Below are positions 10,209-48,300 of a stretch of 64,000 nt of DNA, in pieces (position 1 is the stretch's first letter; every line of letters begins with the position of its first letter). Both the position numbers and the translations under genes were made by a program. The notes below the pieces were generated by a model. It saw nothing but the letters and a program-made list of their open reading frames with translations. It did not search any database and was not told where the DNA came from. Origin of the DNA: a virus (lineage: Duplodnaviria > Caudoviricetes); IMG/VR virus record IMGVR_UViG_3300042339_001064, positions 1 to 64,000 of that record. One strand, 5' to 3'.

Positions 10209-10212
10209 AATT

Positions 10213-15119: not shown

Positions 15120-16062
15120 TTTACAATTTACAAGCATTTCTACAGTTATTGAAAACTGGAAACAAATAGCTCCCAATGAAATTAATTTTAATGAAGAATT
15201 AATGACTGAATGGATTATAGATGCTTATTTTGAAATAGGAACAGCCAAACAATATAAAGAAAAAGTACAAAAATTACAAGTAAAGAATTTTAGAGTAAAA
15301 TTACCTTGTGGTTTTAAGCAAAATTTATATGTGTTAGCTAAATCTAAGGAACATTTAAGAGAACAATTTTTTCTAACAGAATTAATAAAACAAGATTTTA
15401 ATAATCCTGATTGCACATGGACTTATAAAAGAAATTGCAAATGTGAAAATAATTGTTCTTGTGATAATAGTTATTTAGAAACTAATGGTTGGTTGTTTAT
15501 TGAAAATTTAGAAAAAGCAAGATCATTTCAATTTGCTAGTGTTCAAGATTTTACCCCTTGGTTTGAAAGACATAGAAATGAGTGGATTATTTTACAACCT
15601 AGGAAAAATGAATTATCTTTATTAAGACATACTAATGTAGATTTTGAAAGAGAGTTAAGACCTCAAAATTCTTTTACTATTGATAATGGATATTTAATAT
15701 GTGATTATAAAGAAGCTGAAATAATATTAGGATATTTATCTATACCTGTAGATGAAAGTGATTTACCATTAGTACCTAATACCAAAAATTTTATTAATGC
15801 TTTAATAGCTGCAATAGAAGAAAAATTAGCTTATATTCAGTATAGAAAAAGTAAGTCTAATGCTGATTTAAACTTTTTTCAACTGGCTCAAAGAGAATAC
15901 ATTAAATATAGAATTAAAGCTAGAGAAGATTTAAATGCTCAAACATTTGATGAAATGTGGGCTATGGGTGAAGCACTTAATCAATTCTTAGTACCTAATC
16001 ATTATCATGGTTTAGATCAAAGAAAATCTCAAACAATAAATAATACATTTACAAAATATTAA
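15112..16062 (+). CDS. crAss-like tail tubular/ring protein
   Basis: V.NFRVKLPC, FTIDNGYL, YLSIPVDE.DLPLVP; immediately upstream of the muzzle gene. Confidence 0.65.
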   Translation: MNNLQFTSISTVIENWKQIAPNEINFNEELMTEWIIDAYFEIGTAKQYKEKVQKLQVKNFRVKLPCGFKQNLYVLAKSKEHLREQFFLTELIKQDFNNPDCTWTYKRNCKCENNCSCDNSYLETNGWLFIENLEKARSFQFASVQDFTPWFERHRNEWIILQPRKNELSLLRHTNVDFERELRPQNSFTIDNGYLICDYKEAEIILGYLSIPVDESDLPLVPNTKNFINALIAAIEEKLAYIQYRKSKSNADLNFFQLAQREYIKYRIKAREDLNAQTFDEMWAMGEALNQFLVPNHYHGLDQRKSQTINNTFTKY

Positions 16063-16064
16063 TT

Positions 16065-30362: not shown

Positions 30363-33300
30363 ATGCCACAAGTTAATCATCCTAAATACGGAATTATAAA
30401 TTTTCCTGATAATATGTCTCAAGAAGACATAAGACAAGCATTAATTAAATTAGATCAACAAGGAAATAAAATTATACAACCTACCCAACAAAAACTTATG
30501 CAACAACAACCTGTTGCACCTAAACCTGTTGTAAAACAAGAAGAAGAACAAACTTTTTATAATCAATTAACAAATAAAGTTTCGCAAGGTATTAAAGGAG
30601 TAACAAATTTTTTTACAGGTGAAGAAGAGCAGACTCCTCAACAAAAAATTAGTAATCAAATTCCTAATGTAAATCAATCTAAAAGTGTAAAAGGGTATGG
30701 TCAAAGCAATATTGAAACACCTAAACCTATTAATACAAATGCTAAAGCTAGTGAACTTGCAAATGTAGGATATAGACAAGGATCTTCTTTTGAAGAACAA
30801 AAAAGTGTTATTGACGATAATTATAATAAAGAAAGTGAAAAAGTAAAAAACAATTATTTAGCTCTTTTAAGAATGGCTGGAGAAGAAAATCCAAGTTTAG
30901 ATCAATTACCTCCTAATATAAAGTTATTATATAATAAAGATTTACAACCTATTACTGCAAAATATAACGCAGAAATAAATAAATTAAAAGCACAACCTTT
31001 AACTAATAGAAAAGGACTTATTACAGATATTAATCAAAAAAACAAACGTATTGAACAATTAAATGAAGGTATTGATTCATATACTAAAAAAGTAGAAAAT
31101 CTTTCTAAACAAAATGAATTTTTAAATTTAGCAAAAGAAAATAATCCTTTAAACAAACCTTCATCAATAATTCCAATTGTTGGAATTTATAATATATATG
31201 ATACATATTCAAAAAGAAAGGCAGAGATAAATAAAGCAAAAAAACAACTTGAAGGAGGAAAAAAAGATTTACAAAATTTAAAAAATTTTAATATTGATCC
31301 TATTCAAATATTAAAAAATACTCCTGCAAATGAATTACCTCAAATTACAGCTAGTTTAGAAAAACCTATAAAAAATCTATTAGAGTCTGCTAAAAAATTT
31401 ATAAATTTAGAAGATGAAACCACTATTAGAGATTTAAATAAAGAACAAGAAACAAATAAAATTTGGACAGGTAATGTTATATTTGATTGGTTTACAAATA
31501 ATGTAGTAAAAAGAGAAAGAGATGTTGTAAAAGTAAAAAATTACTTGTCAGATACAAATGCAAAAGGGGCTTTAGAAAATACTACTAATTACTATTATGA
31601 TAAAGTAGAGTTTAGTAATGCAGGATCTAAAAATAGATTACAACAAAAAATTGTTGAAAAAGGTTGGGATAAAGATATTAATGCATTTGATGAAAAATTT
31701 AATGCCTTATTAGAAGATTTTCCTAGTTTAAAAAATGATTCTAATAAATTAATGGGAACTATACAAAATTTATATAGTACTCCTGAACAACAACAAAAAG
31801 TTTTAAGTTTAATTCAAGATCCTGATTTTCAAGAAATTGTAACTAATAATGAAGCATTATATAATTTAAATGGGGCTAGAATTGGCCAGAGTTTAAAAAT
31901 GTTTCAAGCTGAAAAAATTAATGAATTACAAGCTTTAAAAGTTGTTAAAAATTTAAATGAAAGACAACAAGCAGCCCAAGATAAATTAGAATTGCGATCA
32001 AAAGAATCTGGTTTATTTAGTGCTGATAGAGTAAATTATTATTTACAACAATTAGATAAAGGAAAAAGTTATATTGCAGAATATGGTAAACAACAAGTAG
32101 GTTCATTAGCTACAACTATTAATCCAGAATCAGAATCTGCTAGAAAATTAGAATATAGTGCTGATTTATGGAAAGCTATTAATTTTGCACAAGATGAAGG
32201 AAATATTAGTCTTTTTGATAAAGGAGTAGAATGGGTAAATCTTGAAGCTGATAAAAATAATAACTACCAAATTGGTTTTAATAAATTGGGACAAGTTGTT
32301 GATGTAAAAGCTAATGATATGAGCATTTCTGTAAAAGGTTCTCAACGAGATTTAATTGAAAATTATTTTTATAGTAATAGTTCTGAATTAAAAAAGCAAG
32401 CTGGGGATATTTATAGTATGCCTGGAGGTACATCTGCTGCTTTGGGAGGAACTAGTAAAGCTATTGCAGTAGGTATTGCAGAAGAAGCTCCTACTATTGC
32501 AGCAGAAGTTGCAGCTACTATATTTACAGAAGGAGCAGCAGCTCCTTTATTAGAAGCAACTTTATTAAGATTAGGTGCAAAAGGAATAACTGCTGCAAAA
32601 GCTAGCAGAAACTTTAGTAAAATTGCAGGACAAGTTATTAATACTACATCTACTTATGCAGAGGTAAAACATGACGTTGAAAAAAATTATAAAGAACAAG
32701 GTTTAGATCCAGGATTACTTCAAGTAATAACTACTTCAGGAGCTATATCAGCAGTTTCTCAACTTACTCCTGGTCTAGAAAATAAATATAGACAAATAGG
32801 AGCTGATTTTGTAGCAGATAGAGTAAAGAAAGAAGCAAACAATGTTTTTGTTGAAGATATACCAAAGGTAATTAAATCTCTTACAGATGATTTAGTGGAT
32901 ATTAAAAATCCTAGTGTAAAAGATTATTTATTTAATAAAGAATTAAGAAATTATGCAGTAGCTAGATTTAGTGATAGAATGGGAACTGTAGCTAAATCTT
33001 TTCGTAAGGAAGGCTTACAAGAAGCATCTGAAGAAACCATTTTAGAACCTTTAGCACAAGTTTTAGCTAATGCAGCTAATGCTTCTTTAACAGGTAATGA
33101 AGAATATAATAAAGAAACTTTAAGAGATTTAGGATTTTTAGATCCTGAAACTGCTTTAATTGCAGGATTAACAGGAGGAATTATGTCTTCTGGGATAGAA
33201 GTTTCCAAAGCTAGTTCAGATTTAAATGAAACATTAGCAGCAAATTTTAAAAAAGATAATGGTTTAAATACTATAAATGCATTACAAGCAGCTATAAAAG

Positions 33301-36300
33301 ATCCTAATAAATTTAAAAGTTTATTGTCAACTTTTATTGGTAATTCTAGTCCTTCTGGAAATAGTTTAACTCAAGAAACTTATAATAATCTTATTGAGTC
33401 TTTTGATACTGTTAAAAATAATTTTGAACAAACTAAGAAAGACTTTAATTTAGATAATGATTTTATTTCTAAATTAGATTTTGAAAATCCATTACATAAA
33501 TCTATATTAGAAAGTGTAGGAGTTAATTTAAAAAATATTGAAAGTTTTAATGGTAGTAAAACTTTTGATAATGTTATTTTAAATTCAGAATTAAATAAAG
33601 TTAATAAAGAAAAAGTAGTAGCTAGTTTAGCTCAATCTTTAGGTATTCCAAATAATAATAATCAATTAGATTTAACTCCTTATTTAGATGAAAATGGATT
33701 TTTTGATTATAATAAATATATTGAAATAATAGGTAAAGATACTTTAGATGAAATAACTATTAATAATATAAAAGAATACAATAATATTGTAGGTAGAGAA
33801 AAAAGTACTAAAAATTTAATTAATTTATTTAATAAAAATTTAGGACCAATTCAAAGTCAATTTAAAGCTCAATATCAAACTGCTATAGAAAATAACCCTG
33901 AGTTATTAAATCCTCAAGCAGGATTTGTTAGAAGTATTTATCAACAAAATTTATTTAATAAATTAGCTAATCAAACTAGAATTGATAGAATTAATTCTTT
34001 ATTAGAAATAGGGCAAGCAATTGATAAAGATAAGGAATTACGAGAAGAATTAAAGACTTTAAATGAAAATAATAAAAGTTTAGATAAATCTTTAACTTCT
34101 ATTACTGATACTTACACTAATGGATACTTTGATGCTCAAGAAAATTTAAATAATTTAGATGAAGAGTTTAATGAAATAGATAAACAATTGCAAGATAAAT
34201 TAAATTCTTATTTATCTCCAGGACTTATTGATAATTTATCTGAAGAAAAAGAAAATGAAATAAAAAATTTAATTAGAATTAAATCTGATAAGCTAAAAGA
34301 AATTAAAAAAACTCATAAAGAATTTAATTCAAGATTTAATAATGGTTTAAAATCTCAAACTTTAAATAGAAAAGCCTTAATAACTGATGCAGAAGGTAAA
34401 AGAACTGTTAAAGATGTAACTATTGATAAACAATTAGAAGAATCAATTAAAGGGGATAAAGAAAGATTAACTAAAATAAAAGAATATAGAAAAATTTTTG
34501 CTAATCTAATAAATGGTCAAGCAACTAAACAAGATTTAGATAAATTAAAAAAGAATAATAGATTATATAATAAACAATTATTAGAAGAAACAGTCTTACC
34601 TTATTATGTATCTTTTAATAAAGAGGAATTAATACAAGCATTTGATAATGATCCTGATTTATTATTAGGTATGTTTTCTATATTAGAAGATATGGGATAT
34701 GTTGGAGATATTCAAAATTATAAAAATGTTAATTTAGATACACTAACTTCTGTTGTTACTGATGGCATTATAAAGTTAAATTATAATATTAGTTTGATAA
34801 ATAATAATCAAGAAAATTTAATTAATAATTTTGACCAAAAAAATGGAGCATTATTAGTTAATAATTATATTAAAACAATTGAAGAAAATTCTGCAAAAAA
34901 TCAAGAACAACCTGCTGTTGAAACTCCTACTCAGTCAAGTGATAATGTACAAGATAATGTTATTAGTCTTATTGAAAAAAATAGTAAATTAAAGTCTGAC
35001 TTTGATGAAGATGAAATAACAAATAATTTCTACATTATTAATGATAAAGAATATAAAAGAGTTACTTCTGTAGAAAGAGATGAGTTAAACTCTAATGAAA
35101 ATTTAACTGCAGGTGCAAATGTTGGAAACTTTTTTGATTCATTAGGAAGGTTTATTTTTGGTAATTTAAATGTTACTAAGGAAAACAGTGATGTTATATT
35201 ACAAGCACAATTAGATTATTTTAAAAATAACGGAATAACATTTAACTTAAAAAAAGATAGTTATGTTGAAATGTTTAATAATTTAATAGAGCAAAGAGAT
35301 TCTTTAATACAAGAAGGATTTAAATTTATAACAGAAGAAAGAGTGCTTTATCATGCTTATGATGGTTTAAAATTTATAGGAGAAGATTCAACAGGTATTA
35401 ATGATAATACAATAGGTGTTGCAGGCACTATGGATATTATTGCTGTAGGTAAAGATGGTAAAGTAGATATTATTGACTTAAAAACTATTTCAGATAATAA
35501 AGGAAAAGATACTGAAAATTTAAAAGATAAAGAAACCAATGGTTGGTCAAAACAATTAGGTTTTTATAAAACATTATTAGAAAAAATACCATCTGTAAAA
35601 GTTAATAATACAAAAGTATTTGTTTCAAAAGTTAAATATGATATTAGTGATTTTGGTAATACAATTTCTTTTTTAAATTTTATAGAACCAAAACTTAATA
35701 CTATTAATATATCTAAGTCAGCTTTAACATTAATAAATAATTATTTAAGTATTCCTAATTTAGTTATAGATAAACCTGTAGAAATTATTACTAATACAGA
35801 AGCTATAACAGAAGAAGAAATGCCAGATTATATTTTAGAGCAACAAATGTTATTAGCTGAAGATAGTAATCCTGAGTTACCTAATAATGAAGATTTTGGT
35901 CCAGATGAATTTCAGTTAAGTCAGGCAACAGGGGTGCCTGTAACAGAAATGGAAGGTATAGTTCCTATTATTAAAACAGAAGTAATTGATTTACAAACAG
36001 ATAATAATATATTTTTTACACCTGTTAATCAAACTAAAGCAGAAAATTTAGAAATTGAAATTAATAAATTAATATCAGATAAAAATAAAGAATTAAGAAA
36101 TTTAATTGTAAATACAGAAAATGTTGATCAAAAAATAAATAAAATTACTAATAAATATAACAAATTAATTACAAAAGCTAAAAAAGAATTATTAATATTA
36201 CAAGGAAAATCTCCTATACAAAAAACTAAATTAGTTAATGAATTAGTAACTGGAGATAAAATAATAATAGATAATAAAGTAGTAACTGTAGTTAGTATAT

Positions 36301-37955
36301 ATCCAGGTGAATATACTGATGGTAATCAAAGTTGGTTTGAAGGAAATGAAACATTTAAAATAAATATAGAAAGAGAAGGCATAACTTCAGGAATATTTGA
36401 TAATAATGAAATATTTAATCCTATTAATAGTCAAAATAGTGATGAATATAGTAATTGGGAAGTTAATTTAGTTAATGATTTAGAAAATGAAACTACTGCA
36501 GAATTTGAAATAGAACCTACTGCAGAAGAAAGTGCAAGAGCAAAGTCTGTATTTGGTACTAAACCTGTATTAGATCCTGTAACACAATTAATTACAGGTC
36601 AAGCTAATCAAGTTAATTTTGAAACTAGTTCAAATAATGTCTTAGAAGGATTTGAAGATGAAGCTGATAGTAATATTGTTTCTTTAACTAGAGTAGCTTA
36701 TGTTAAATTTAATATTACTTATGATGAGCAAAATAACAAACAATATGATGTAAGTATTTTTAATAATCAAGAATTAAATAAAAAGTTTAATAATAAAATA
36801 TTAACTGAAACAGAGGTTGAAAAACTTTTTAAAGATAATGGATTATTTTTTAGTAATAAAATAGAGTCTAATAATGTTTATGTACTTAAAGATATAAATA
36901 AAAAACCAATTAATTCTTTTCAACAAGAAAATATTATATCTAAAATAACTATCCCTGAATCTAGTATATTAAATAGTATTTATGCCAATGATTTAACTAA
37001 TCAAGAAGGAGAAATAGTTGTATTAGATACAGAAAATAAATACAATAACACTTTAAAGACTGAAAAAGATTTTAGAAATAATGCAGCATTAGGAGTAGTA
37101 GTAAATAATGCTTTAGTAGCAATTATTCCTGCTAATAAAGGAAATACTAGGAATGCCCAAGTAAGAAATAAATTAACTATTACTAAGGTAGGTAATACTT
37201 TTACTGTACAACCATTTAAAGTTAAAATTAAAAAAGTTAAAAAAGATGCATTTTTATTTAATAATCAACCTATAAGAATAAATAACTTTTTAAATAAAGT
37301 TAATGGATTTAAATCTACTATTGCTTTTGTATATGAAGTAGATAAAGTTAAAAAATTAGTTAATCCTTTTGTTAATAGAGAAGTTTCTGAATTAAATATA
37401 CCTGCAGATAATTTAACTAATAATGGAGTATTTTTAATATTAGAAAAAAGTGGAGAAAATCCTATTATTATTCCTTTGCAAACTCCTAAGTTAAGAGAAT
37501 TTTTTGAAGGAACACAAGAAGATTTAGAAAATATTAAAACTATTCTTAAAACTAGTATTTCTGATGTATTTACATCACAAGATTTACAAGGAAATTATAA
37601 TGTTTTTTTAAATAGACTTAGAACTGCTTCTGATAAAAATCCAATAATAAGTCAAATTTTTAAAATTATTCCTACAAGTATTAATGAAACATCTACTAAT
37701 ACATCTCAAAAAATAAAATTAGAAAATTTAAAATTAAATTTTAATTTAGATAATATTATGGATTATTTGTGGGATACTTTAATTACATTAAATGAAAATA
37801 CTAGAGACTTTTATTCTGTAGATTTAGATCCTGAGAACTTTTATGCTAATAACTCTGTTATAATTGATTATGATAAAAATATTATAATGGATACAAAAAA
37901 TAATGATATTACATCAAATTCTATCTTTAATCAAGATAATGATGTTTATTGCTAA
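30363..37955 (+). CDS. Giant virion ejection protein with PD-(D/E)XK nuclease-like domain
   Basis: 2530 aa; Ala/Gly-rich hydrophobic region; YKRVTS...GVAGTMDII...IIDLKT...QLGFY at ~35040-35580. Confidence 0.7.
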   Translation: MPQVNHPKYGIINFPDNMSQEDIRQALIKLDQQGNKIIQPTQQKLMQQQPVAPKPVVKQEEEQTFYNQLTNKVSQGIKGVTNFFTGEEEQTPQQKISNQIPNVNQSKSVKGYGQSNIETPKPINTNAKASELANVGYRQGSSFEEQKSVIDDNYNKESEKVKNNYLALLRMAGEENPSLDQLPPNIKLLYNKDLQPITAKYNAEINKLKAQPLTNRKGLITDINQKNKRIEQLNEGIDSYTKKVENLSKQNEFLNLAKENNPLNKPSSIIPIVGIYNIYDTYSKRKAEINKAKKQLEGGKKDLQNLKNFNIDPIQILKNTPANELPQITASLEKPIKNLLESAKKFINLEDETTIRDLNKEQETNKIWTGNVIFDWFTNNVVKRERDVVKVKNYLSDTNAKGALENTTNYYYDKVEFSNAGSKNRLQQKIVEKGWDKDINAFDEKFNALLEDFPSLKNDSNKLMGTIQNLYSTPEQQQKVLSLIQDPDFQEIVTNNEALYNLNGARIGQSLKMFQAEKINELQALKVVKNLNERQQAAQDKLELRSKESGLFSADRVNYYLQQLDKGKSYIAEYGKQQVGSLATTINPESESARKLEYSADLWKAINFAQDEGNISLFDKGVEWVNLEADKNNNYQIGFNKLGQVVDVKANDMSISVKGSQRDLIENYFYSNSSELKKQAGDIYSMPGGTSAALGGTSKAIAVGIAEEAPTIAAEVAATIFTEGAAAPLLEATLLRLGAKGITAAKASRNFSKIAGQVINTTSTYAEVKHDVEKNYKEQGLDPGLLQVITTSGAISAVSQLTPGLENKYRQIGADFVADRVKKEANNVFVEDIPKVIKSLTDDLVDIKNPSVKDYLFNKELRNYAVARFSDRMGTVAKSFRKEGLQEASEETILEPLAQVLANAANASLTGNEEYNKETLRDLGFLDPETALIAGLTGGIMSSGIEVSKASSDLNETLAANFKKDNGLNTINALQAAIKDPNKFKSLLSTFIGNSSPSGNSLTQETYNNLIESFDTVKNNFEQTKKDFNLDNDFISKLDFENPLHKSILESVGVNLKNIESFNGSKTFDNVILNSELNKVNKEKVVASLAQSLGIPNNNNQLDLTPYLDENGFFDYNKYIEIIGKDTLDEITINNIKEYNNIVGREKSTKNLINLFNKNLGPIQSQFKAQYQTAIENNPELLNPQAGFVRSIYQQNLFNKLANQTRIDRINSLLEIGQAIDKDKELREELKTLNENNKSLDKSLTSITDTYTNGYFDAQENLNNLDEEFNEIDKQLQDKLNSYLSPGLIDNLSEEKENEIKNLIRIKSDKLKEIKKTHKEFNSRFNNGLKSQTLNRKALITDAEGKRTVKDVTIDKQLEESIKGDKERLTKIKEYRKIFANLINGQATKQDLDKLKKNNRLYNKQLLEETVLPYYVSFNKEELIQAFDNDPDLLLGMFSILEDMGYVGDIQNYKNVNLDTLTSVVTDGIIKLNYNISLINNNQENLINNFDQKNGALLVNNYIKTIEENSAKNQEQPAVETPTQSSDNVQDNVISLIEKNSKLKSDFDEDEITNNFYIINDKEYKRVTSVERDELNSNENLTAGANVGNFFDSLGRFIFGNLNVTKENSDVILQAQLDYFKNNGITFNLKKDSYVEMFNNLIEQRDSLIQEGFKFITEERVLYHAYDGLKFIGEDSTGINDNTIGVAGTMDIIAVGKDGKVDIIDLKTISDNKGKDTENLKDKETNGWSKQLGFYKTLLEKIPSVKVNNTKVFVSKVKYDISDFGNTISFLNFIEPKLNTINISKSALTLINNYLSIPNLVIDKPVEIITNTEAITEEEMPDYILEQQMLLAEDSNPELPNNEDFGPDEFQLSQATGVPVTEMEGIVPIIKTEVIDLQTDNNIFFTPVNQTKAENLEIEINKLISDKNKELRNLIVNTENVDQKINKITNKYNKLITKAKKELLILQGKSPIQKTKLVNELVTGDKIIIDNKVVTVVSIYPGEYTDGNQSWFEGNETFKINIEREGITSGIFDNNEIFNPINSQNSDEYSNWEVNLVNDLENETTAEFEIEPTAEESARAKSVFGTKPVLDPVTQLITGQANQVNFETSSNNVLEGFEDEADSNIVSLTRVAYVKFNITYDEQNNKQYDVSIFNNQELNKKFNNKILTETEVEKLFKDNGLFFSNKIESNNVYVLKDINKKPINSFQQENIISKITIPESSILNSIYANDLTNQEGEIVVLDTENKYNNTLKTEKDFRNNAALGVVVNNALVAIIPANKGNTRNAQVRNKLTITKVGNTFTVQPFKVKIKKVKKDAFLFNNQPIRINNFLNKVNGFKSTIAFVYEVDKVKKLVNPFVNREVSELNIPADNLTNNGVFLILEKSGENPIIIPLQTPKLREFFEGTQEDLENIKTILKTSISDVFTSQDLQGNYNVFLNRLRTASDKNPIISQIFKIIPTSINETSTNTSQKIKLENLKLNFNLDNIMDYLWDTLITLNENTRDFYSVDLDPENFYANNSVIIDYDKNIIMDTKNNDITSNSIFNQDNDVYC

Positions 37956-37980: not shown

Positions 37981-40900
37981 ATGGCTTGCTACATTAATCC
38001 TTTCCCTAATGAAATATCTCAAGATGAGTATTTATTAATTTTAAATACTAATAATTTATATGATACTTATTTAAATATTATTAATAATGGTGAAGAAGGT
38101 TTATTAGAATTTTTTAACATTAATAAAGCTGTAATTGATAAAGGAATAAATCAAATTAAAGAATTAAGAGATTTTAAAGCTGGAAAATTAACCTCAACAG
38201 ATGTTATTATTAATAATCCTATTATTAATTATTTTATAAATAATAATATAAACTCTAATATACTTAAAACTTTAGATAAATCTTTTACAGAAATTTTTTA
38301 TAAATTAGCTAATGAAAATAATAAACCTGTATCAGACTTTATTAATATAAATGATTTATTTAAATTACCTTATCAAGAAGGAGTAAAATCTAGTAATGTT
38401 CTTATTAGATTTTTAGGTTCTTTAAATGGATATAAAAATATGTTATCTAATCAGTTAACTACAGGATTAAATAATAATAATGAAGTTTTAACAGAGTATG
38501 ATAAAATTTATATTCAACAAACTATTAACTATATTAACAGTTTAGGTGTTTTTAAAGATCTTAATTATCCTATTATTTCTTTAGAAAATTTTAAAAATAA
38601 TTTAAGATTAAAAGAATTAATTAATTATTTAGGAAGAGATGGTTTATTTAAGCTAGATAATCAATTAGTAGAAGATTTAAATAATGAAAAAGAAGATCTA
38701 GAAAATAATATTCAAATATATGAAAAAGATCCTTTAACAGAAGATCCTTCAGATAAAATATCTGCTAGACTTAAATTAATGCTTAGAGGTATTAATATGT
38801 ATGATAGTTCTGGCAACAAAGTTATAAAATCTAATATTGAATTATTTTGGAAACCTGCAGATTTAATACAAAAAATGTTAATAGCAGTTTCTAATAATAA
38901 TGTACATAATTTAACAATAGATCAAATTTTAGACAAATTAACAGTATTATCTACTCAAGAATTTTCTATATTATCTCAACCTATATCTACATTTTTAAAA
39001 AGATTAAATGCTTTAAAAACAAATAATAATTTATTTAATAGTGCAGGTCCAGATATTTATACTGATTTATTTTTATATTTTCAACAATATCCTGTAGGTA
39101 TTAAAGTTTTAGAAACTGAAACTACTATATTTAAAAATAAACCAATTTATATAAATGGTATTGAAGTTATAGAAGATATAGAAGTAAAAAGTTTAAAAAT
39201 TCAAAATAAAGTTGATTATGTAAATGCAGGTTTAAATAGAGTACGAAAAGATATATTTAATAATCTTTTAAATAGTAGCGAATTACAAAATAATTTTAAT
39301 ACTAAAAATGAATTAATATTAGCTTCTAATCAAAGTGTAGCTCAATTAGCTGAAATTATTGCAACTTTATTATCACCGAGTCTTACAACAACTCAAAAAA
39401 ATATTAAAGAACAAGTTTTTAATAAAATTAAACAAACAGATTTAAAAAATGGAATAAATTTTTTAACTGTTTTAGAAGGTATTATTAATGGTGATAATAT
39501 ATTAAACTCAAGTATAATTAATAAAGTTTATAATATTAATAATGATACATTATTTCCAGTACTTAGTCCTTCAGAATTAAGTGAAGAATTAAGTATTATT
39601 AATTCTAGCATTGCTGCTATTAAAAATGGAGTAGCTTATGAAGATACAGATTTTTATAAAAAGTTTAATGGAGATATTATTAGTATGTCATTATGGGCAG
39701 ACTATGTAAAAAATGCTAGTAATCCTTTAAGTTTATCTATATTTATTGGACATAAACTTGATGAAAATATTAAAGAAGAATATTCTGATTTTACACAAGC
39801 AGAGTTATTAGCTAATTTATTTAATGTTATAAGTTCTGGTAGTATCCCTACTCCAATTTTATCAGATAAATCTAATATTTATTTAATTGATAATTACAGT
39901 CTTAATCAAGGAGCTTTAAATCAATTAAATTTTAGACAAGATCCTATTTCATATTTTAAATATTTTATTAGTTATTTAAAAATAGATAATGAATTAAATG
40001 AGCAAATTAATAATGGTATTAATATTGGAAAAAATATTGATAAAGCTATTGCTAAGCAAAAATTAATTTTATTTAATCCTGCATTTTATGAAATTGCAGA
40101 TAATGAAGAAGTATTAGAAATTTATAATACTTATGTTAATGGAGATACTGAAAATAAACAAACTGCTGAAAAACAACTTATAGATATTATTAATAAATAC
40201 CAAACTAAATTAGGAAATGATTTATATCAAAAATTTATTGATACTAAATTAATTACTTATAATGATGATTTAGAAGGATATTATATTAATAGTAATTTAT
40301 TAGATAAAACAATTTATTTAAAAACTAAAGCAGGAGTAGAGCAATTAAAAAATAATATTAAAGAAGTTGCTGTAAAATACTATGTTTTAAATACACAAGT
40401 TAAATTACTTTCAGTAGGTCATTCAGGTTTCTTTAAAGAGAATGATGAGCAAAAAAGAGTTAAAGCTATTGCTGCAAATTCTAAAAAAGTAAATTTAAAT
40501 GCTACTTATAAAAATAAACAAATTATAACTAAAAATAGTGGTAAAAGAATTATTTTAAAAGACATAGAAAATCCCGTAGTAAATAAAATAGCTGAAGATT
40601 TTTTTCTTCAAAGATTAAAAGAAGAAAAGTTTTCTAATGAAGATATTCTTAAAAAAATGGCTAATTTGTTTTCAAATTATACTTTATTAGATGGTACACC
40701 TGTCTATTCTTTAAACAGTGCTAAATTAGATAAAATAAAAGAAGAATTTAATATTGAAGCAGCACCTTTATTAGAAAAAATAAATACTTTAAAATTAGAA
40801 AATAATTTAGAAGAAGTTGCTTTAATTCAAGAAGATTATAATAAAATTTTAACTAAATATTCTAATTTAGAAAAAGAAATTAAATTCTTGCCTACTAAAA

Positions 40901-43900
40901 AAAGTAATACTACTGATGCTTCATCTGTATCCTCTTTAGATTTTTCTAAAAAATATCATGTAGGATTAAATATGTATTCTGATAACCAAGAAGAAGCTTA
41001 TAATGCAGAATTAAATGGTAATTATTTAAATAAGTTTACAGAAAATAACTTTAAAGTTATTAAAAATATAGTATATACTAAAACTAAAAGTAAAAATTCT
41101 GATATATTACTTCCTTACATGGAAAAAACATCTACAGATAATTTTACTGCACAAAGAGTATTTTTAGGAGAAGAGCCTAATTTATACCAAGCTATGATTG
41201 GAAAAATGTTTGGTTATACTTTTAATGAAAAAAATGAATCATGGACTTATAATCCAAATAATGCAATAATAGATAAAATTGTTTATGAGAGTGCTGTTAA
41301 AGCTGAAATGCCTGTAAACCAAAATGGAGATATTGTTGTATTTGATTTATTAAAAGAAATAGAAAATAAAAATATTAAAAGTTTAGAAGATGTAAATAAT
41401 TGGAAACCTGAACAAAATTTTGAAGAAAATTATGTTATAGATATTCCTATTACTGAAGATAGATTACAAGTAGAAACTCCAGAACATTTAGAAGGTCAAG
41501 CAGATATAGGCACACAAATTGAAGGACTTATAAGTAATGGTATAGATGCAGACTCTGAATTTGTAATTAATAATAAAACATTTAATGGGCTTGAATTAAC
41601 AAATTTATTAAATCAATTAAGAGTTAATTATGTAGACAAAGGAGAAAATGATTTATATAATGAATTTTTTAAAGAAGATAGAATTTATGATTTAGTTGCT
41701 TCATTATATAATGATAGAGAATATTTAAATTTAGAGACTTTAACTCCTGAAAAATTACCCGATTTATTAAGTAATCCTCAATTTGGATTAGCTTTAGTTT
41801 CAAAAATACAATCTTTAATAAAACAAAATGTAGTTAAAACAAAAATTAATGGTATTCAATTTTTTAATGGAGTTGTTGCTAATGATAAAAGTTTAAATAT
41901 ATTAGTAGAAGATGTTATAGATGCAAATGGTAAAACTATTAAAAAATTAATATTTGAAGTAGCAGTACCTGCATTTAGTGAAAACATGTTTAAAGCAGCA
42001 TTAAATTCTGAAACAGGAAAGTTAGATGTAAATTTAATTCCAGAAGAATTAAGAGAGTTTGTTGTATATAGAATACCTACAGAAGCAATGTATTCTATGT
42101 TTGCAGTTAGAATTAAAAAATTATTACATCCTTCATCAGGACCTATTATATATATGCCAGAAGGCCCCACAAATATTGCAGGTTTTGATATGGATATTGA
42201 TAAACTATTTGGTATTGTAAAAAATTATTATTCAAAAGATAATAAATTAATTCCTATTTCTTATTCTTTAGAAAAAGATAGTAATATTAATTTTAAAGAA
42301 TGGATTAAAGAAAATATTACTGATACTGACCAATTAACTTTAAATGATTTATTTTTAGAAAAAAGTAATTTAATTGAAAAAAATCCAGATTTATTTAAAG
42401 AAAGATCTGATATTAAAAAATTAAAAGAAGAAAAAAATAAAATAATCTCTGATTTAGAAAAAGATTTAATAGAAGAATATGATCTTTCTGGAAAACAATT
42501 ATCTACAGCACTTTCAAGACAATTAAAAAATTATCCAAAATATTTAGAAATTAAAGAAACTCTTAATACTTTTTATGACTCTATTAAAATAGAAGAAAAT
42601 GAAAGTTTAAAAAATTCTGTAAAAGAAATAAATAAACAAATAAATGATATTTATGCTATTTATAAAGATTCTTGGAAAAATTTAAATGTTGCAGCACAAC
42701 TTAGTACTAGTCAATATCAAAATCTTTATTTAGATATTATTAAAGGGGTTGTTACTAATGAAAAAAGTGTAAATGAATATATTACAGGAAATGGATTTCA
42801 AAGATTAGAAGATATAAATACTGATTTAGAAAATAGAAATACTTCTAAAGAAAGTAAAAAAGATAAATTATTAAGAGCTCAAAATCCTTATAGAGATGCT
42901 AATTTAGTTAACTCTTTAAATACTTTTAGAGCTATTATGTCAGGTGCACAAAATATTGGACCTGCAGCTATTTATAACCAATTTGTAGCTTTAAATCAAT
43001 TTTTAAAGAATTTTGGAATTGAAAGTACAGTAGGATTTAATGTTAAATCAATTAATTTATTAAGTAAAAATCAAAAAGATACTGAACAATTTAATATATT
43101 TAAAGGTTTAAATAATTATGTAACTAAATCTGGGTTAAAACCAAATATGGCTATTGCTGAGTTATTAGCACAAGCAGTAGATAATATTAAGAAAGATTTA
43201 TCTGTTCCTTTAAATTTACAAAAACAATTAGTAGGATTAAGATCTTTATTATATATTACAGGTTTAGATGAAAATATTGTTGATAGAATATTTACAGATT
43301 ATCCTCTAGTAGATAAAATTATTAAAGAATCTATTGAATCAGATGATATTAATAGATATAAAAATAATATATTTAAATATAATTTATATGATTTATCAGA
43401 AAAACCTAGTAAATTTATATTTTTAGATAAAGATGAAAAAATAAACATTAATTTAGAATTATTAAATAAAAAATTTAAACCAGGTAATTTAGTATCAGAC
43501 ATATTATCTTCTGATATTTCAGAAGAAGAAATAGTTTATTTTTTACATGAAATGTTAGAATTAGCTAATGAGTTATCTGATATTATAAACACTATTAATT
43601 ATTATCAAAAAGGGTTAGGTAAAAACTTTGCTAGTTTAATTTTTTCTTATGATAAAACAAAGCAATTATTAAATTCTACTTTATCAAATAACTTTAGTAT
43701 TGATTTGTCAAATAGTTTTATAGAATATAAACTTCAAAAGTTAGTTGAAATTACAGAAAATATATATAGTAATTTTAATATTAATTTAGAAGATCCAAAT
43801 TTTAATTTCTTTAAACAATATTTTCAAAGACTTAATAATTCAAAATATTTAGGATATTTATTTAATGCTAATTTAAGTTCTAACTTATATTTAAATTTAT

Positions 43901-46900
43901 TAGCAGAGTTTGGTTCTGCAGAAAATCTTAAAAAAGCATATTTTAAAGAAGTTTCTGATTTAAAATTAATTTTTGGACAAAATACTATAATAGAAAAAAC
44001 TGGAGATAATTATGTAAAATCAGATGTGCAAAATTTAAATTTAAATATTTTAAATTCTATTATTAGATTTGTAGATAATAATCCTTTCTTTGAAGAAAAT
44101 ATAAAAAATATAACAATTTTAAAACAACTTTATCCTTTTGATATACAATTTTTAGGCCAATCAGAATCTTTTAATAGTTCTTTGAATCCTAAAAATATTA
44201 TTGATATAATGTCAATAGATAATAAAACTTTATATTACGGAGGTAATCAAGATATTATTACTGAAGATAATGTATTTAGTGCACAAGAAATTACTCAAAA
44301 GTTATTTTTTATTAATATGGTTCAATCAGGATTATTTAGTGGAAAAAACAATAAAGGAAGAAGTAATGTATTTGATTTGTTATTTTTAGATAATATTATT
44401 TTACAAAACTTTTTATTATATATTAATAAACCATATTCTTATTTATTAAATAATTCAGTAGTAAACCCAGAAATACTTAGAAATAGTTCAAATGTTTTAA
44501 GTGCTTATACTGATTTTATTCTTTTAAATAATCCAGAAGGATTTAATAAATATACTCGAAGTTTAGAAGATACTTATTTATTAGATAATAATACTAAAAA
44601 ATTAATTAAAAATATATTTGTTAATAGTACCCCTATAACATTAAATAATAATTATTTAGATGTTTATGTTATAGATAAATCTATTATACTTCCTACAGAT
44701 GATCCTAAAAAATTAGTAAAATTAGGTAACTTTTTAAATTCTACTTATATTACTTTTAATGATAACGGATCTAAAAAATTATTTAAATTAGTATATAGTT
44801 TAGGTAATAATTTATTATATAAAAATCTAGGAATTATTGGTGGTAATTTATTATCAAATGAATTCAGTGGAAAAATAAATCCTATTGCATTTAATTTTTT
44901 AGATGAAGTTATAAGTAATTTAGGTATTACTCGTTCTAATATAGAAAGTAGTGATGTAAATCTTGCAAATCAAGTTATTGGTACTTGGAGTAAACCAGCA
45001 ATTCAAACTCCTGTAAATACAACTGTTGAAACTATATCTACACCTCAAAATCCTATTAAGATTTATTCTGATGGATCTGACATAAAAGGAACAGGTAAAG
45101 TAGGTTTTGGTGCTGTATATGAATATAATAATAAAGAGTATGCTTTAACAGGCACAGAAGAAGGCTTTGAAGTTAAAGATTTACAAAAAATGTTTCCTGA
45201 AGCTAAATTTAGTAATCCTACTATGGAAATGTTAGCTCTTGTAAGAGTACTTCAATCATTCTCTAATAATTCTGAACATCTTTCTATTTATCAAGATTAT
45301 AAGGGTGCTGTAAACTATAATGAATTATGGAACTACTCTGAAGGATCTCAGCAAAGAGAGTCAAAACCTTGGAATGCTAAAGAAAGTTATATCAAATATT
45401 TAGTTGCACAAGCTGTAGATGCTATAAAGAAAATTGAAACTAACGGTGGTTCAGTAAAAATTAACTGGGTAAAAGGACATGCTGGTAATAAAATGAATGA
45501 CAGAGCTGACTTTTATGCTAAAAGTAGAGAAAACTTTAATAATTTAACAGAGCCTCTTAGTAAAACATTTATTGAACCTACTACTCAACCATCTACTGAT
45601 GTTAAAACTAAACAAGAAGAACAAAGTAAATTATTTCAATTACCTTCAACAGAAGGTCAAGTAGCATCAGAAAAAACTATTAGAGATTTAGCTGCAAGAA
45701 TGTCTGATAGAATAGGTATGCCTGTTAAGTTTGAATCTGATAGAACTAAACAATATAAAGGTAAAATTGAAAATAATATTGCTTATGTTAATTTAGCTTA
45801 TGCTACATTAGATACTCCTATACATGAGATATTAGGTCATCCTATTATTAGAGCAATTAAAGGTAAAAATAAAGGTTATGTAGTAAAAGGATCTACTATA
45901 ACAGATAAAGCTACTAATAAAACTTATATTGTTAAAGAAGTAACTGAAGATTATGATTTTGTCATAGAAGAAAATGGTAAAGATATAACTGTTGATAGTT
46001 CTACTTTTGAATGGAATACTAATGCAATATCTCAATTATACCAAAATCTACTTAAAGAACTTGAATATGGTAAAGGTAAAGAAGTATTAGATAGGATTAA
46101 AAGGGATTACAAAGAGTATGAAAAAAATTTAACAGCAGTTAAATCTGAAATAAACAGAATACAAAATATTATTTCTAAGGGTTATCTATACGAAATAGAT
46201 GGGAATCTTTTTAACAAAAAAGATGCTATAGAATACTCTATAGATAATAATTATGATTTTGAAGAAGAAATAGAATTTGATTCTTATGCAAATTTAGAAA
46301 TTAACTTATTAAGACAACAGCAAATATTAGAAGAAAAAAATTCTGTTTCTAAAAGTAATGTTGCTGAAGATTTTATTATAGATGATAAAGAAATAAGAAT
46401 TGTTTATAATTTAGAAAAAGTTCAAGAAGAAGCTATTGTAGAACTTCTTGGTATGATGACTGCTGAAAAACTTGATAATGTTAAAGACGGTAAATTAATA
46501 TCTTTACTTAAAAGATTACTTAAAGAAATGAAACAATTTATTCGTTCTTTAATTAATCAGAAAGAAGTTGAGATTGATAAATTACCTGATAATATGACTA
46601 TTAATGATTTAGCTGATTTATTAGCTTATTCTAATAGTAAACTTATATTACCTGGGTATGAAGTAGAATATACTACTCCTGATAATATGAAGTTTAAAAC
46701 TTATCAAGAAGCTAGTAATCATATTAGTCAATTAGCTAAAAATGTTAAAGATGTTGATTTAGATAATATTTCTTTATTAAAAGAAAAACCTAAATATAAA
46801 ATAGGAGATTATTTTGGACAATATGAAAAAGGATTTGTAGAACAAGAAGGTCTAAATAAAATAGAAACACAAGAAGAAGCAGACTATTTAAATTCAAAAG

Positions 46901-48300
46901 AGTATAGACTTCAAGAGCCTGATACAATAAAAAACTTTATAGAAAAAAACAAAGAATACGAACAATCTAAAGAAATTATAGAAGAATGGAAAAAAGTAAA
47001 TAACATTCAATATAATCCTGAAGAAATATATTCAAGAGGTCAAGAATTTGTATCTGTACTAGGGGCTTACTCTGATTTTGATGTTAATCTTATGATGCAG
47101 AATCTTCTTCAACATATAGAGGATAATGAAAAAGCTGGAGGTAAATTTGTTATATCTGCATTTACTAAACCTGTTGATAAAACAATTGGTCACTTAGAAG
47201 GTGGTGGAGGAAAAATTAAGTTTAAAATATACCCACAATCTAATGATATATTATGGGCTGCTAATACTGATGTTTATAGTGGTAGTGTTTGGGATGCTAG
47301 TGAAAAAATTAATAAAGATAAAAAATCTGAATTACTTGGAGTTAGTTATACTAAATATCCTTCTTTATATAATGTGGGTACTGTACAACCTAATTTAGCT
47401 TCTGTTGTAGATAATTTAGCACATCATCATAATGAACTTGGTATTGCTTTAACAGGTAATAACTTTAGATTAGAATATGATGAAGATATTCCTTATACTA
47501 CTAAAAAGATTATTGAGGGTATAAATAAAATATTAGACCAAAAATATGGCAAGTTAGTTAACCCTGAGATTAAAAAAGTTACAATTATACCTAATGAATT
47601 TGAATTTTGGCAACAAGATATGAATGAGGATGGAGGTTTAGATAGATTTAGAATAAGTATATTTAAAAAAGATGATAAATGGTTTGAAGAATTTTTTGAT
47701 ACTTATGGAGAATCTGAAAGTGTTAGAGAAATAGATTATAATGAAGTAAAATTAAAATTTGATGAAGCTCTATCTTCTAATTCAACTTTAACAAGAGGTA
47801 GAGGTATTCAACCAACTCAAACTAAAGATAATTTAAAAGAAAGTATTGAGAGTGTTAAGAGTAAAGTAACTAATGAAATTGAAGATTCTGATGGAATAGG
47901 TTCTTTTGGTTATGATAATAATGGTATTAGATATGTTAAAAGTGATGATGGTACTTATTCTAAATCATCTGATAAATTTAAAACTTGGGTAGAAATAACT
48001 GAAGAAGAGTATGAAAGTAATAAACCTAAAAGAGATATTAAACAAAAAGAATACATATCTCAAGCATTAATTAACACTAAAATAGCAGCATTAAAAGAAG
48101 TAGCTAAAAAATATCCTAGAAGTTTAATTAGAAGTGAAGTTAAACCTGTTAAACCTTTTGATACTAATTCTTATGAACAATTTAATGATGAATTACCATT
48201 TCAAAAAATACTTTCTACTGAAGATAAATTTTTTATTCAGTATATTAAAGAAGAAGCACTTAAAAATAATATAGATCTTTCAAAAAATAATTGTAAATAA
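37981..48300 (+). CDS. crAss-like virion RNA polymerase (two-barrel, single chain) with RNase H and zincin-like fusions
   Basis: YRIPTE...GFDMDIDK catalytic loop (42181-42204), TDA and GTQ motifs, AVDNIK; 3439 aa. Confidence 0.88.
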   Translation: MACYINPFPNEISQDEYLLILNTNNLYDTYLNIINNGEEGLLEFFNINKAVIDKGINQIKELRDFKAGKLTSTDVIINNPIINYFINNNINSNILKTLDKSFTEIFYKLANENNKPVSDFININDLFKLPYQEGVKSSNVLIRFLGSLNGYKNMLSNQLTTGLNNNNEVLTEYDKIYIQQTINYINSLGVFKDLNYPIISLENFKNNLRLKELINYLGRDGLFKLDNQLVEDLNNEKEDLENNIQIYEKDPLTEDPSDKISARLKLMLRGINMYDSSGNKVIKSNIELFWKPADLIQKMLIAVSNNNVHNLTIDQILDKLTVLSTQEFSILSQPISTFLKRLNALKTNNNLFNSAGPDIYTDLFLYFQQYPVGIKVLETETTIFKNKPIYINGIEVIEDIEVKSLKIQNKVDYVNAGLNRVRKDIFNNLLNSSELQNNFNTKNELILASNQSVAQLAEIIATLLSPSLTTTQKNIKEQVFNKIKQTDLKNGINFLTVLEGIINGDNILNSSIINKVYNINNDTLFPVLSPSELSEELSIINSSIAAIKNGVAYEDTDFYKKFNGDIISMSLWADYVKNASNPLSLSIFIGHKLDENIKEEYSDFTQAELLANLFNVISSGSIPTPILSDKSNIYLIDNYSLNQGALNQLNFRQDPISYFKYFISYLKIDNELNEQINNGINIGKNIDKAIAKQKLILFNPAFYEIADNEEVLEIYNTYVNGDTENKQTAEKQLIDIINKYQTKLGNDLYQKFIDTKLITYNDDLEGYYINSNLLDKTIYLKTKAGVEQLKNNIKEVAVKYYVLNTQVKLLSVGHSGFFKENDEQKRVKAIAANSKKVNLNATYKNKQIITKNSGKRIILKDIENPVVNKIAEDFFLQRLKEEKFSNEDILKKMANLFSNYTLLDGTPVYSLNSAKLDKIKEEFNIEAAPLLEKINTLKLENNLEEVALIQEDYNKILTKYSNLEKEIKFLPTKKSNTTDASSVSSLDFSKKYHVGLNMYSDNQEEAYNAELNGNYLNKFTENNFKVIKNIVYTKTKSKNSDILLPYMEKTSTDNFTAQRVFLGEEPNLYQAMIGKMFGYTFNEKNESWTYNPNNAIIDKIVYESAVKAEMPVNQNGDIVVFDLLKEIENKNIKSLEDVNNWKPEQNFEENYVIDIPITEDRLQVETPEHLEGQADIGTQIEGLISNGIDADSEFVINNKTFNGLELTNLLNQLRVNYVDKGENDLYNEFFKEDRIYDLVASLYNDREYLNLETLTPEKLPDLLSNPQFGLALVSKIQSLIKQNVVKTKINGIQFFNGVVANDKSLNILVEDVIDANGKTIKKLIFEVAVPAFSENMFKAALNSETGKLDVNLIPEELREFVVYRIPTEAMYSMFAVRIKKLLHPSSGPIIYMPEGPTNIAGFDMDIDKLFGIVKNYYSKDNKLIPISYSLEKDSNINFKEWIKENITDTDQLTLNDLFLEKSNLIEKNPDLFKERSDIKKLKEEKNKIISDLEKDLIEEYDLSGKQLSTALSRQLKNYPKYLEIKETLNTFYDSIKIEENESLKNSVKEINKQINDIYAIYKDSWKNLNVAAQLSTSQYQNLYLDIIKGVVTNEKSVNEYITGNGFQRLEDINTDLENRNTSKESKKDKLLRAQNPYRDANLVNSLNTFRAIMSGAQNIGPAAIYNQFVALNQFLKNFGIESTVGFNVKSINLLSKNQKDTEQFNIFKGLNNYVTKSGLKPNMAIAELLAQAVDNIKKDLSVPLNLQKQLVGLRSLLYITGLDENIVDRIFTDYPLVDKIIKESIESDDINRYKNNIFKYNLYDLSEKPSKFIFLDKDEKININLELLNKKFKPGNLVSDILSSDISEEEIVYFLHEMLELANELSDIINTINYYQKGLGKNFASLIFSYDKTKQLLNSTLSNNFSIDLSNSFIEYKLQKLVEITENIYSNFNINLEDPNFNFFKQYFQRLNNSKYLGYLFNANLSSNLYLNLLAEFGSAENLKKAYFKEVSDLKLIFGQNTIIEKTGDNYVKSDVQNLNLNILNSIIRFVDNNPFFEENIKNITILKQLYPFDIQFLGQSESFNSSLNPKNIIDIMSIDNKTLYYGGNQDIITEDNVFSAQEITQKLFFINMVQSGLFSGKNNKGRSNVFDLLFLDNIILQNFLLYINKPYSYLLNNSVVNPEILRNSSNVLSAYTDFILLNNPEGFNKYTRSLEDTYLLDNNTKKLIKNIFVNSTPITLNNNYLDVYVIDKSIILPTDDPKKLVKLGNFLNSTYITFNDNGSKKLFKLVYSLGNNLLYKNLGIIGGNLLSNEFSGKINPIAFNFLDEVISNLGITRSNIESSDVNLANQVIGTWSKPAIQTPVNTTVETISTPQNPIKIYSDGSDIKGTGKVGFGAVYEYNNKEYALTGTEEGFEVKDLQKMFPEAKFSNPTMEMLALVRVLQSFSNNSEHLSIYQDYKGAVNYNELWNYSEGSQQRESKPWNAKESYIKYLVAQAVDAIKKIETNGGSVKINWVKGHAGNKMNDRADFYAKSRENFNNLTEPLSKTFIEPTTQPSTDVKTKQEEQSKLFQLPSTEGQVASEKTIRDLAARMSDRIGMPVKFESDRTKQYKGKIENNIAYVNLAYATLDTPIHEILGHPIIRAIKGKNKGYVVKGSTITDKATNKTYIVKEVTEDYDFVIEENGKDITVDSSTFEWNTNAISQLYQNLLKELEYGKGKEVLDRIKRDYKEYEKNLTAVKSEINRIQNIISKGYLYEIDGNLFNKKDAIEYSIDNNYDFEEEIEFDSYANLEINLLRQQQILEEKNSVSKSNVAEDFIIDDKEIRIVYNLEKVQEEAIVELLGMMTAEKLDNVKDGKLISLLKRLLKEMKQFIRSLINQKEVEIDKLPDNMTINDLADLLAYSNSKLILPGYEVEYTTPDNMKFKTYQEASNHISQLAKNVKDVDLDNISLLKEKPKYKIGDYFGQYEKGFVEQEGLNKIETQEEADYLNSKEYRLQEPDTIKNFIEKNKEYEQSKEIIEEWKKVNNIQYNPEEIYSRGQEFVSVLGAYSDFDVNLMMQNLLQHIEDNEKAGGKFVISAFTKPVDKTIGHLEGGGGKIKFKIYPQSNDILWAANTDVYSGSVWDASEKINKDKKSELLGVSYTKYPSLYNVGTVQPNLASVVDNLAHHHNELGIALTGNNFRLEYDEDIPYTTKKIIEGINKILDQKYGKLVNPEIKKVTIIPNEFEFWQQDMNEDGGLDRFRISIFKKDDKWFEEFFDTYGESESVREIDYNEVKLKFDEALSSNSTLTRGRGIQPTQTKDNLKESIESVKSKVTNEIEDSDGIGSFGYDNNGIRYVKSDDGTYSKSSDKFKTWVEITEEEYESNKPKRDIKQKEYISQALINTKIAALKEVAKKYPRSLIRSEVKPVKPFDTNSYEQFNDELPFQKILSTEDKFFIQYIKEEALKNNIDLSKNNCK

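Follow-up and report, generated by a model that had tools for sequence, protein, structure and literature searches.

A predicted type-1 RNase H cassette in the giant crAss-type virion RNA polymerase protein of an environmental phage

Crassviruses are among the most abundant phages, and the roles of their giant injected proteins past early transcription are largely open. One of these proteins is gp66 of phage phi14:2 (PDB 6VR4), a virion RNA polymerase; the passages on the 6VR4 enzyme report that single-stranded or denatured DNA is transcribed far better than duplex, and a section of the paper on phi14:2 gp66 mentions that the three giant proteins are fused in some phages. For crAss001, excerpts of the published description present gp47, gp49 and gp50 as virion cargo that has to unfold partially to pass the tail and refolds in the cell. 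The virion polymerases of N4-like phages are polyvalent proteins fused to metallopeptidase, ADP-ribosyltransferase (ART), lysozyme or BECR-RNase domains, with 2 to 15 domains per polyvalent protein (passages of PMC5512222). The DNA considered here, called the window, is the whole stretch of 64,000 nucleotides that forms positions 1 to 64,000 of the IMG/VR virus record IMGVR_UViG_3300042339_001064 (Caudoviricetes). It contains an open reading frame (ORF) of 3439 aa in which a type-1 RNase H domain and a crAss-type virion RNA polymerase almost certainly form part of the same polypeptide. The parts of this ORF are the following:

37981..48300, plus strand: giant ORF of 3439 aa, consisting of polymerase body, RNase H cassette and a C-terminal region called module X
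37981..44919, plus strand: body of a gp66-like virion RNA polymerase (residues 1-2313), assigned by tblastn to the relative L026 and by a core profile match to 6VR4_A
42187..42201, plus strand: DxDxD catalytic motif D1403-M-D-I-D1407 (GFDMDIDKL), assigned by alignments
44920..45054, plus strand: upstream proline/threonine (P/T)-rich linker (residues 2314-2358)
45055..45525, plus strand: type-1 RNase H domain (residues 2359-2515, 157 aa), assigned by Pfam, PHROG and PDB matches and a structural model
45070-45072, 45226-45228, 45295-45297, 45478-45480 and 45508-45510, plus strand: RNase H catalytic codons for D2364, E2416, D2439, H2500 and D2510, respectively
45526..45657, plus strand: downstream P/T-rich linker (residues 2516-2559, with EPTTQPST)
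45658..48297, plus strand: module X (residues 2560-3439, 880 aa), a putative metallopeptidase delimited by conservation, which in the majority of relatives opens a separate protein of 2000-2500 aa
45823-45840 and from 46423, plus strand: the module X motifs HEILGH and QEEAIVELL, respectively

Frame 1 of the plus strand is free of stops across 45055-45525 and reads IKIYSDGS...GFGAV...NPTMEMLAL...IYQDYKG...WVKGHAGNKMNDRADFYAKS, and the opposite strand is full of stops. The initial annotation had read a complete RNase HI motif set here and had named a hidden Markov model (HMM) search with RNase_H as one check. That search bears the reading out: Pfam RNase_H (PF00075) matches the whole ORF with E 1.3e-12 and 48.5 bits (curated cut-off 25.8) and the domain alone with E 3.8e-14 and 53.5 bits, and the D-E-D-H-D set is present in full. 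The domain also matches phrog_531, ‘Rnase H’ (E 1.5e-20), and finds E. coli RNase HI chains by phmmer (E ~1e-5). In the HMMER alignments D2364, E2416, H2500 and D2510 correspond to D10, E48, H124 and D134 of E. coli RNase HI. D2439 (in IYQDY) falls two columns away from E. coli D70 in the HMMER alignment; it lies at the end of strand 4 in an AlphaFold2 model and is invariant among relatives, and it is by strand position and invariance, not by the phmmer column, that it is equated with D70. The model, for which an alignment of 42 sequences (A1) served as input, adopts the α/β RNase H fold with high confidence scores (predicted local distance difference test, pLDDT, 95.2; predicted template modelling score, pTM, 0.92). 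In the PDB, Foldseek ranks entries for E. coli RNase HI first (E 3e-9, template modelling score, TM, 0.59-0.67), and the best viral structural match, in BFVD, is A0A8D9CFZ2, annotated as ‘putative Ribonuclease HI’ and derived from an uncultured marine phage (41% identity, TM 0.74-0.79).

The domain shares with E. coli RNase HI the fold, the D-E-D-H-D set and a counterpart of the alpha-C/protrusion region. It differs in its ~20% identity, in belonging to a distinct phage subfamily marked by the motifs SNPTME, QDY and GN(D)xAD in A1, in lacking cysteines and in being embedded in a 3439-aa protein. There is, moreover, an extra insert of ~14 residues after strand 3, and the copies in giant proteins carry an insert of ~13 residues in the protrusion. 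Standalone phage RNase HI proteins (phrog_531; A0A8D9CFZ2) belong to the same subfamily, but they stand alone, contain cysteines and mostly lack the 13-residue protrusion insert. The counterpart of the basic protrusion of the E. coli enzyme has about equal numbers of acidic and basic residues here, as might be expected of a degenerate, non-catalytic RNase H fold kept for nucleic-acid binding or as a structural spacer. This reading is very improbable, given that all five catalytic residues are present, that the Pfam match is above the cut-off and that the model is confident. The same residues are near-invariant in other giant proteins: in a pooled set of 181 proteins with a full-length RNase H domain (85 giants of at least 1800 aa, 21 of intermediate size and 75 small ones of at most 300 aa), the giants keep D10 in 84/85, E48 in 84/85, D70 in 85/85, H124 in 81/85 and D134 in 84/85 cases. 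From its sequence and modelled fold the segment is, with very high confidence, an intact type-1 (RNase HI-like) RNase H, and it is predicted to be catalytically competent.

The polymerase assignment rests on the region around GFDMDID, at residues 1401-1407. A tblastn search with residues 1001-1700 yields matches in 74 phage records, among them crAss001 gp50 (E 2e-20), and ‘putative RNA polymerase’ is the gene annotation in most of the 30 matches listed. A profile of the polymerase core (A3), made from the window, three IMG/VR loci, crAss001 and phage cr111_1, finds residues 1159-1478 of 6VR4_A (phi14:2 gp66) with E 2.6e-23, aligning GSDFDIDK of that enzyme to GFDMDIDK of the window; the three aspartates of DxDxD (D243, D245 and D247 of A3) are invariant. 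The RNase H domain lies 953 residues C-terminal of DxDxD, and proline plus threonine make up 30% of the 30 residues on either side of its HMM envelope, against 7.6% in the whole protein. The fusion within a virion RNA polymerase polypeptide, the position C-terminal to the core and the P/T-rich linkers, all proposed from the letters at the outset, are thus upheld, with core motif, profile match and RNase H domain lying in one ORF.

The surroundings of this ORF are those of a crAss-type cargo block. Two other giant ORFs flank it, one of 2530 aa before and one of 2252 aa after it, and all three stand on the same strand behind CrAss_Ring_2, CrAss_Ring_1 and a weak match to a muzzle protein:

14075..16062, plus strand: crAss tail ring proteins 2 and 1 (Pfam CrAss_Ring_2, E 6.2e-17, and CrAss_Ring_1, E 6.8e-27, both above the cut-off)
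30363..37955, plus strand: upstream giant ORF of the cargo block, 2530 aa
48310..55068, plus strand: downstream giant ORF of the cargo block, 2252 aa, with HExxH at residue 228

The crAss ring proteins upstream in this same-strand virion block identify the phage as a crassvirus. The protein shares with phi14:2 gp66 and crAss001 gp50 the DxDxD core and the place as the middle of three giant genes behind the tail genes, and its body is similar in length to gp66 (~2313 aa against 2194 aa in the 6VR4 chain). By contrast with both, it adds 1126 residues, made up of RNase H and module X. No near-identical DNA is found among 50,697 deposited phage records. The stretch itself occurs in 24 among the public runs listed, nearly all labelled as lake-water metagenomes.

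The window is a metagenomic assembly, and the GC content at third codon positions (GC3) of the RNase H domain is unlike that of its flanks, so that a mis-joined, chimeric contig has to be considered. Contigs from other runs (X7, X8 and X9, which are not flagged as a possible source of the record) bridge both borders of the domain, which argues that the fusion is not an assembly artefact: the contig of X7 record 3 spans 44000-45597 with 0 differences, that of X9 record 22 spans 44905-45096, that of X8 record 15 spans 45473-45672 and that of X8 record 17 extends into module X. The 90% cluster of the 3439-aa protein is found on 4 contigs, and 84 other giant proteins have the same embedded domain. 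The probability of a chimera, which the initial annotation had raised as one outcome that would undo its proposal, is therefore negligible. Run X6 covers only part of the stretch, and nothing is inferred from it. Another X7 contig (depth 6.1) links 44651 to 46118 through 9 other letters, with a net length that is not a multiple of three; this join is absent from the table of joints and may represent a co-occurring variant free of the cassette or a chance local match.

The region behind the polymerase body is variable. In tblastn the polymerase of the closest relative, L026, shares 47.5% identity with residues 3-2313 and the homology ends there, which places the start of the variable slot near residue 2314, ~45 residues ahead of the RNase H domain. 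The polymerase ORF of L026 continues with a superfamily 1 helicase (AAA_30, PIF1, UvrD_C_2) and NADAR, with a similar TQPST linker, and has no RNase H there. In the window the RNase H domain has G or C at 25/157 third positions (15.9%), compared with 197/3282 (6.0%) elsewhere in the ORF (binomial p 8e-6). The maximum count is reached in 32 windows of 157 codons, every one of which starts within residues 2354-2386 and overlaps the domain. GC3 is not enriched in module X, which is equally conserved (7.7%), or in the polymerase core (5.6%). The relatives that were fetched have a GC content of 33-48%, against 25.5% in the window, and the domain is read as having been acquired fairly recently from a donor that was less rich in AT. 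RNase H is very probably a cassette in a variable effector slot behind the polymerase body. TQP(S/T)T linker motifs occur at 11 sites in 10/85 giants, against 1.45 in shuffled sequences, a real feature confined to a subset. The stereotyped form (E)PTTQPST is seen at module borders in the window (45585-45605), in some relatives and also in L026.

An exhaustive phmmer search of 1.84 billion representative proteins gives 194 matches with E<=1e-3, and most of the 38 at <=1e-30 are giant; a search limited to proteins of 1891-6019 aa gives 62 with an RNase H domain, the window's own included. With a polymerase-core HMM iterated on the 85 giants that bear RNase H, the core is detected in 70 and undetected in 15. 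Of the 70, RNase H follows the core in 59 and precedes it in 11. When C-terminal, RNase H is normally the last domain, with a median tail of 61 aa (43/59 tails have at most 150 aa), and the window protein has the longest tail of the 59, 912 aa. In two of the 11 with an N-terminal RNase H, just ~430 residues separate it from DxDxD; for P0085 and P0090, both from the phmmer search, the distance is ~420-435 residues, and the domain would then be internal to the polymerase body.

In IMG/VR, 382 relatives were confirmed by means of the core alignment, the best 80 of which were checked up to 10 kb on each side; RNase H is present in 0/80 of these loci, a figure that is not a prevalence estimate because one large data set dominates the sample. 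The whole genomes of the gut crassviruses crAss001 and cr111_1 yield no RNase H in a six-frame search, and the five of their giant proteins that were scanned (crAss001 gp49 and gp50 and three of cr111_1) have no Pfam domain at E<=1e-4. Against deposited phages, tblastn with the RNase H domain and its flanks retrieves just one unannotated 4.6-kb record (29% identity). The idea of a survey of crAss polymerases for this fusion, put forward with the first description, thus has a divided outcome: RNase H recurs in 84 other giant proteins, the core being detected in 70/85 of the giants, and is missing from the 80 IMG/VR loci, L026, crAss001 and cr111_1. Likewise, the first description spoke of a polymerase carrying its own hybrid nuclease; this holds in the sense that the two share one chain, but RNase H is not a polymerase-specific accessory, in view of its absence from L026, crAss001 and cr111_1 and of its varying position.

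Across relatives the RNase H domain is 52-79% identical, and their polymerase cores give just 23-46% local identity. A FastTree phylogeny of 181 RNase H rows, in which just 39/174 inner branches are well supported, requires a minimum of 2 switches in placement (N- or C-terminal) and 9 in the size class of the protein (giant or small); with such low support no history is drawn. In a viral contig of 88 kb that looks unrelated (L007), RNase H is a standalone ORF among small genes (9986-10525, 179 aa, or 186 from stop to stop; 54% identical). Recoding of L007 (TAG=Q, table 4) as an explanation for its absent long ORFs was rejected, and the contig consists of small genes plus the standalone RNase H.

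Eleven metagenomic giants were scanned with Pfam, and RNase_H is above the cut-off in 11/11. Their other domains are ART-PolyVal, Kinase-PolyVal, LPD23, NADAR (which adjoins RNase H in 5/11), SprT-like, HD_4, 2OG-FeII_Oxy_2, PIF1/AAA_30 helicase, DUF1848, HATPase_c_3 and DUF7831. Such an array of modules is, by analogy, the crAss-type counterpart of the N4-type polyvalent proteins. The two have in common a giant multidomain protein in the virion block, a polymerase joined to unrelated enzymatic modules and, in the relatives, ART-PolyVal, Kinase-PolyVal and LPD23. They differ in their polymerases, the one of the window being a two-barrel enzyme of crAss type and that of N4 a T7-like enzyme with no relation to it, and in that the RNases of the N4 type have the BECR fold. 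Pfam scans of the window ORF give no PolyVal-named domain and no LPD signature. In environmental crAss lineages the polymerase protein would double as a carrier of exchangeable enzymes (RNase H; helicase plus NADAR; ADP-ribosyltransferase, kinase, AlkB-like, HD). This would tie crAss biology to the concept of polyvalent proteins, which to date has been described for phages of the N4 type.

Companions of this conflict type (ART-PolyVal, Kinase-PolyVal, NADAR, SprT-like, AlkB-like) are what would be expected if the injected RNase H were a counter-defence effector that destroys the hybrid RNA of immunity systems at DNA entry, be it in CRISPR RNA:DNA R-loops, RNA-guided Argonaute duplexes or intermediates of retrons and DRT systems. 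The presence and absence of the domain do not follow polymerase kinship and the domain forms a GC3 island, as would be the case for arms-race cargo, and passages of Iyer et al. 2017 (PMC5512222) suggest that RNases of phage polyvalent proteins may block CRISPR-like systems. However, the strong conservation of the domain (52-79% identity) is unlike that of typical fast-evolving anti-defence proteins. Hybrids in Cas and Argonaute complexes are largely shielded. For retrons, PMC8989520 reports that host RNase H1 is required for maturation and does not block it. A counter-defence role is accordingly unlikely.

The cysteine content links the domain to the cargo chain. The cysteines of the three giant ORFs are found only at the ends that face one another (the last residue of the 2530-aa ORF; residues 3 and 3438 of the 3439-aa ORF; residue 5 of the 2252-aa ORF), and 69/85 RNase H-bearing giants have a cysteine within the last 12 residues. 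Embedded RNase H domains are free of cysteine in 78/85 cases (mean 0.08), whereas the 75 small relatives average 2.71 cysteines and just 7 of them are cysteine-free. This argues that whatever constrains the remainder of the cargo chain also acts on the embedded RNase H. It also bears on a further explanation, in which an ordinary replication RNase H for primer or R-loop removal hitch-hikes in the polyprotein and acts late in the infected cell, perhaps after release by a peptidase. The nearest standalone relatives are indeed small phage RNase HI genes (the 186-aa ORF of L007, 54% identical, and the marine phage protein in BFVD); the embedded copy is the sole RNase H in the genomes of two IMG/VR relatives with estimated completeness of 89% and 93%; and a conserved HExxGH module follows RNase H in the window. 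A preprint on Goslar Rhc, a fusion of RNase H and clamp in Chimalliviridae, reports a function in replication and, separately, in transcription, probably via R-loop resolution (10.64898/2026.10.01.755736). Rhc resembles the present protein as a phage RNase H fused to a nucleic-acid module, but it is described there as a small replisome subunit in the phage nucleus and not as a domain of a virion polymerase, and the two are likened by description only. Against a replication enzyme speak the purging of cysteines in embedded copies, as in other cargo; the usual place of RNase H as last domain before the conserved terminal cysteine (69/85), which suggests that it stays in the chain; and the neighbouring domains, which are those of injected effectors and not replisome parts. 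This explanation, too, appears improbable.

The reading favoured here is an active RNase H that is injected with the polymerase protein, because phi14:2 gp66, the crAss001 cargo and the N4-like polyvalent proteins offer precedents. By analogy with crAss001 and phi14:2, the 3439-aa and almost cysteine-free cargo polypeptide would be packed in the virion and would refold in the host after extrusion in a partly unfolded state, either before the DNA or together with it. Delivery of the cassette with the virion, suggested by the homology to the virion proteins phi14:2 gp66 and crAss001 gp50, is probable. Since it prefers single-stranded or denatured DNA to duplex, a gp66-type polymerase would be expected to make hybrids. 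The RNase H would cut the RNA strand of RNA:DNA hybrids, and its likeliest substrates would be the hybrids and R-loops left on the incoming phage DNA by the co-delivered polymerase; their cleavage would free the template, clear it for replication and could leave RNA ends with 3'-OH as primers. That polymerase-made hybrids on phage DNA are the main substrate is a tentative proposal, and the explanation as a whole, an injected and active cassette that clears hybrids, has about an even chance of being correct. If RNase H does act on such hybrids, this would explain how a polymerase that prefers single-stranded templates escapes trapping by its own product. PIF1-type helicases can unwind RNA:DNA hybrids. 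The helicase cassette of L026 is compatible with a shared task of hybrid removal with RNase H, and is given as a lead only.

Several points weigh against this proposal. RNase H is dispensable for polymerase function, as it is absent from L026, crAss001, cr111_1 and 80/80 of the sampled loci, and its place N-terminal of the core in 11/85 giants and in coreless giants in 15/85 makes a fixed coupling in cis to the polymerase unlikely. It cannot simply help the output of early mRNA, because hybridised transcripts would be destroyed. Hosts usually have their own RNase HI, the depletion of cysteines could be a single inherited state of related embedded domains, and the domain, which is followed by a putative peptidase module, may not stay attached.

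A wider and more speculative picture, which is given little credence, is that the crAss-type polymerases of freshwater and environmental phages possess a hypervariable slot for swappable enzymes of the first minute, a polyvalent system that would have arisen by convergence on a two-barrel polymerase. RNase H could then be a weapon against RNA-guided DNA-targeting complexes at entry, or form a primer-making unit with the tethered polymerase, which would transcribe while the R-loop is trimmed. If true, such a unit would allow replication to begin independently of the primase and RNase H of the host.

Both polyvalent virion proteins and the virion polymerases of crAss phages have been described before, and what is judged to be new is the RNase HI cassette in the variable slot of the latter. 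Within the literature covered, with Yutin et al. 2018 (Nat Microbiol) and all supplements lying outside this scope and possibly bearing on the matter, no paper links RNase H or polyvalent proteins to crAss-type polymerases. The review of Crassvirales in PMC10136315 has 0 occurrences of ‘RNase H’, the main text of Yutin et al. 2021 contains none of ‘RNase’, ‘ribonuclease’ and ‘polyvalent’, and the text of Iyer et al. 2017 (PMC5512222) contains none of ‘crAss’, ‘RNaseH’ and ‘ribonuclease H’. As a compact module of ~160 residues with clear catalytic mutants, the domain offers a handle on what an incoming genome needs in its first minutes.

Module X, behind the downstream linker, matches at least 218 giant proteins, with 44-68% identity in the best local alignments, and is more conserved than the polymerase core. 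Among the first 45 relatives it mostly lies 50-390 residues from the N-terminus of a separate protein of 1900-2900 aa, and in a few of them it stands upstream of the polymerase in a fused protein. Because it mostly heads a separate protein, the ORF of the window is an unusual fusion, in which polymerase and RNase H are followed by a segment that normally opens the next cargo protein. HEILGH (HExxxH, not HExxH) and QEEAIVELL are invariant in an alignment of 10 sequences and near-invariant (conservation of at least 90%) in one of 120, motifs from which a metallopeptidase is plausible. With the ORF scanned in eight chunks, nothing in module X exceeds the cut-off in Pfam or PHROGs; it has no PDB profile match and no match among deposited phages. 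The AlphaFold2 model of residues 2560-2960 is poor (pLDDT 53.8), and an atlas feature search points to ART-PolyVal/LPD23 clusters with a score of only 0.85, a lead. Within module X there is also a weak, sub-threshold match to Pox_A22 (46714-47007, residues 2912-3009; E 0.0028, 18.2 bits, cut-off 22), a resolvase of RuvC-like type whose fold resembles that of RNase H.

In L026, a small ferritin-like ORF and an ORF of ~130 aa (MSKC...DNCK) separate the polymerase gene from the giant gene that follows (15611-16557). Over its final 29 residues the ~130-aa ORF has 86% identity to the C-terminal 29 residues of the polymerase ORF of the window, and this shared C-terminus looks like a conserved junction peptide on differing carriers.

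Elsewhere in the window, the upstream giant ORF (30363-37955) contains a sub-threshold match to a PD-(D/E)XK nuclease (35352-35591, residues 1664-1743; E 6.8e-4, 20.1 bits, cut-off 22), and four cargo genes are unusual for a phage:

55192-55569, minus strand: SET-domain protein (E 2.7e-13)
11455-12567, plus strand: double-PAS protein (E 4.8e-22)
56233-57102, minus strand: protein resembling spore photoproduct lyase (E 5e-22)
250-1563, plus strand: leucine-rich-repeat protein

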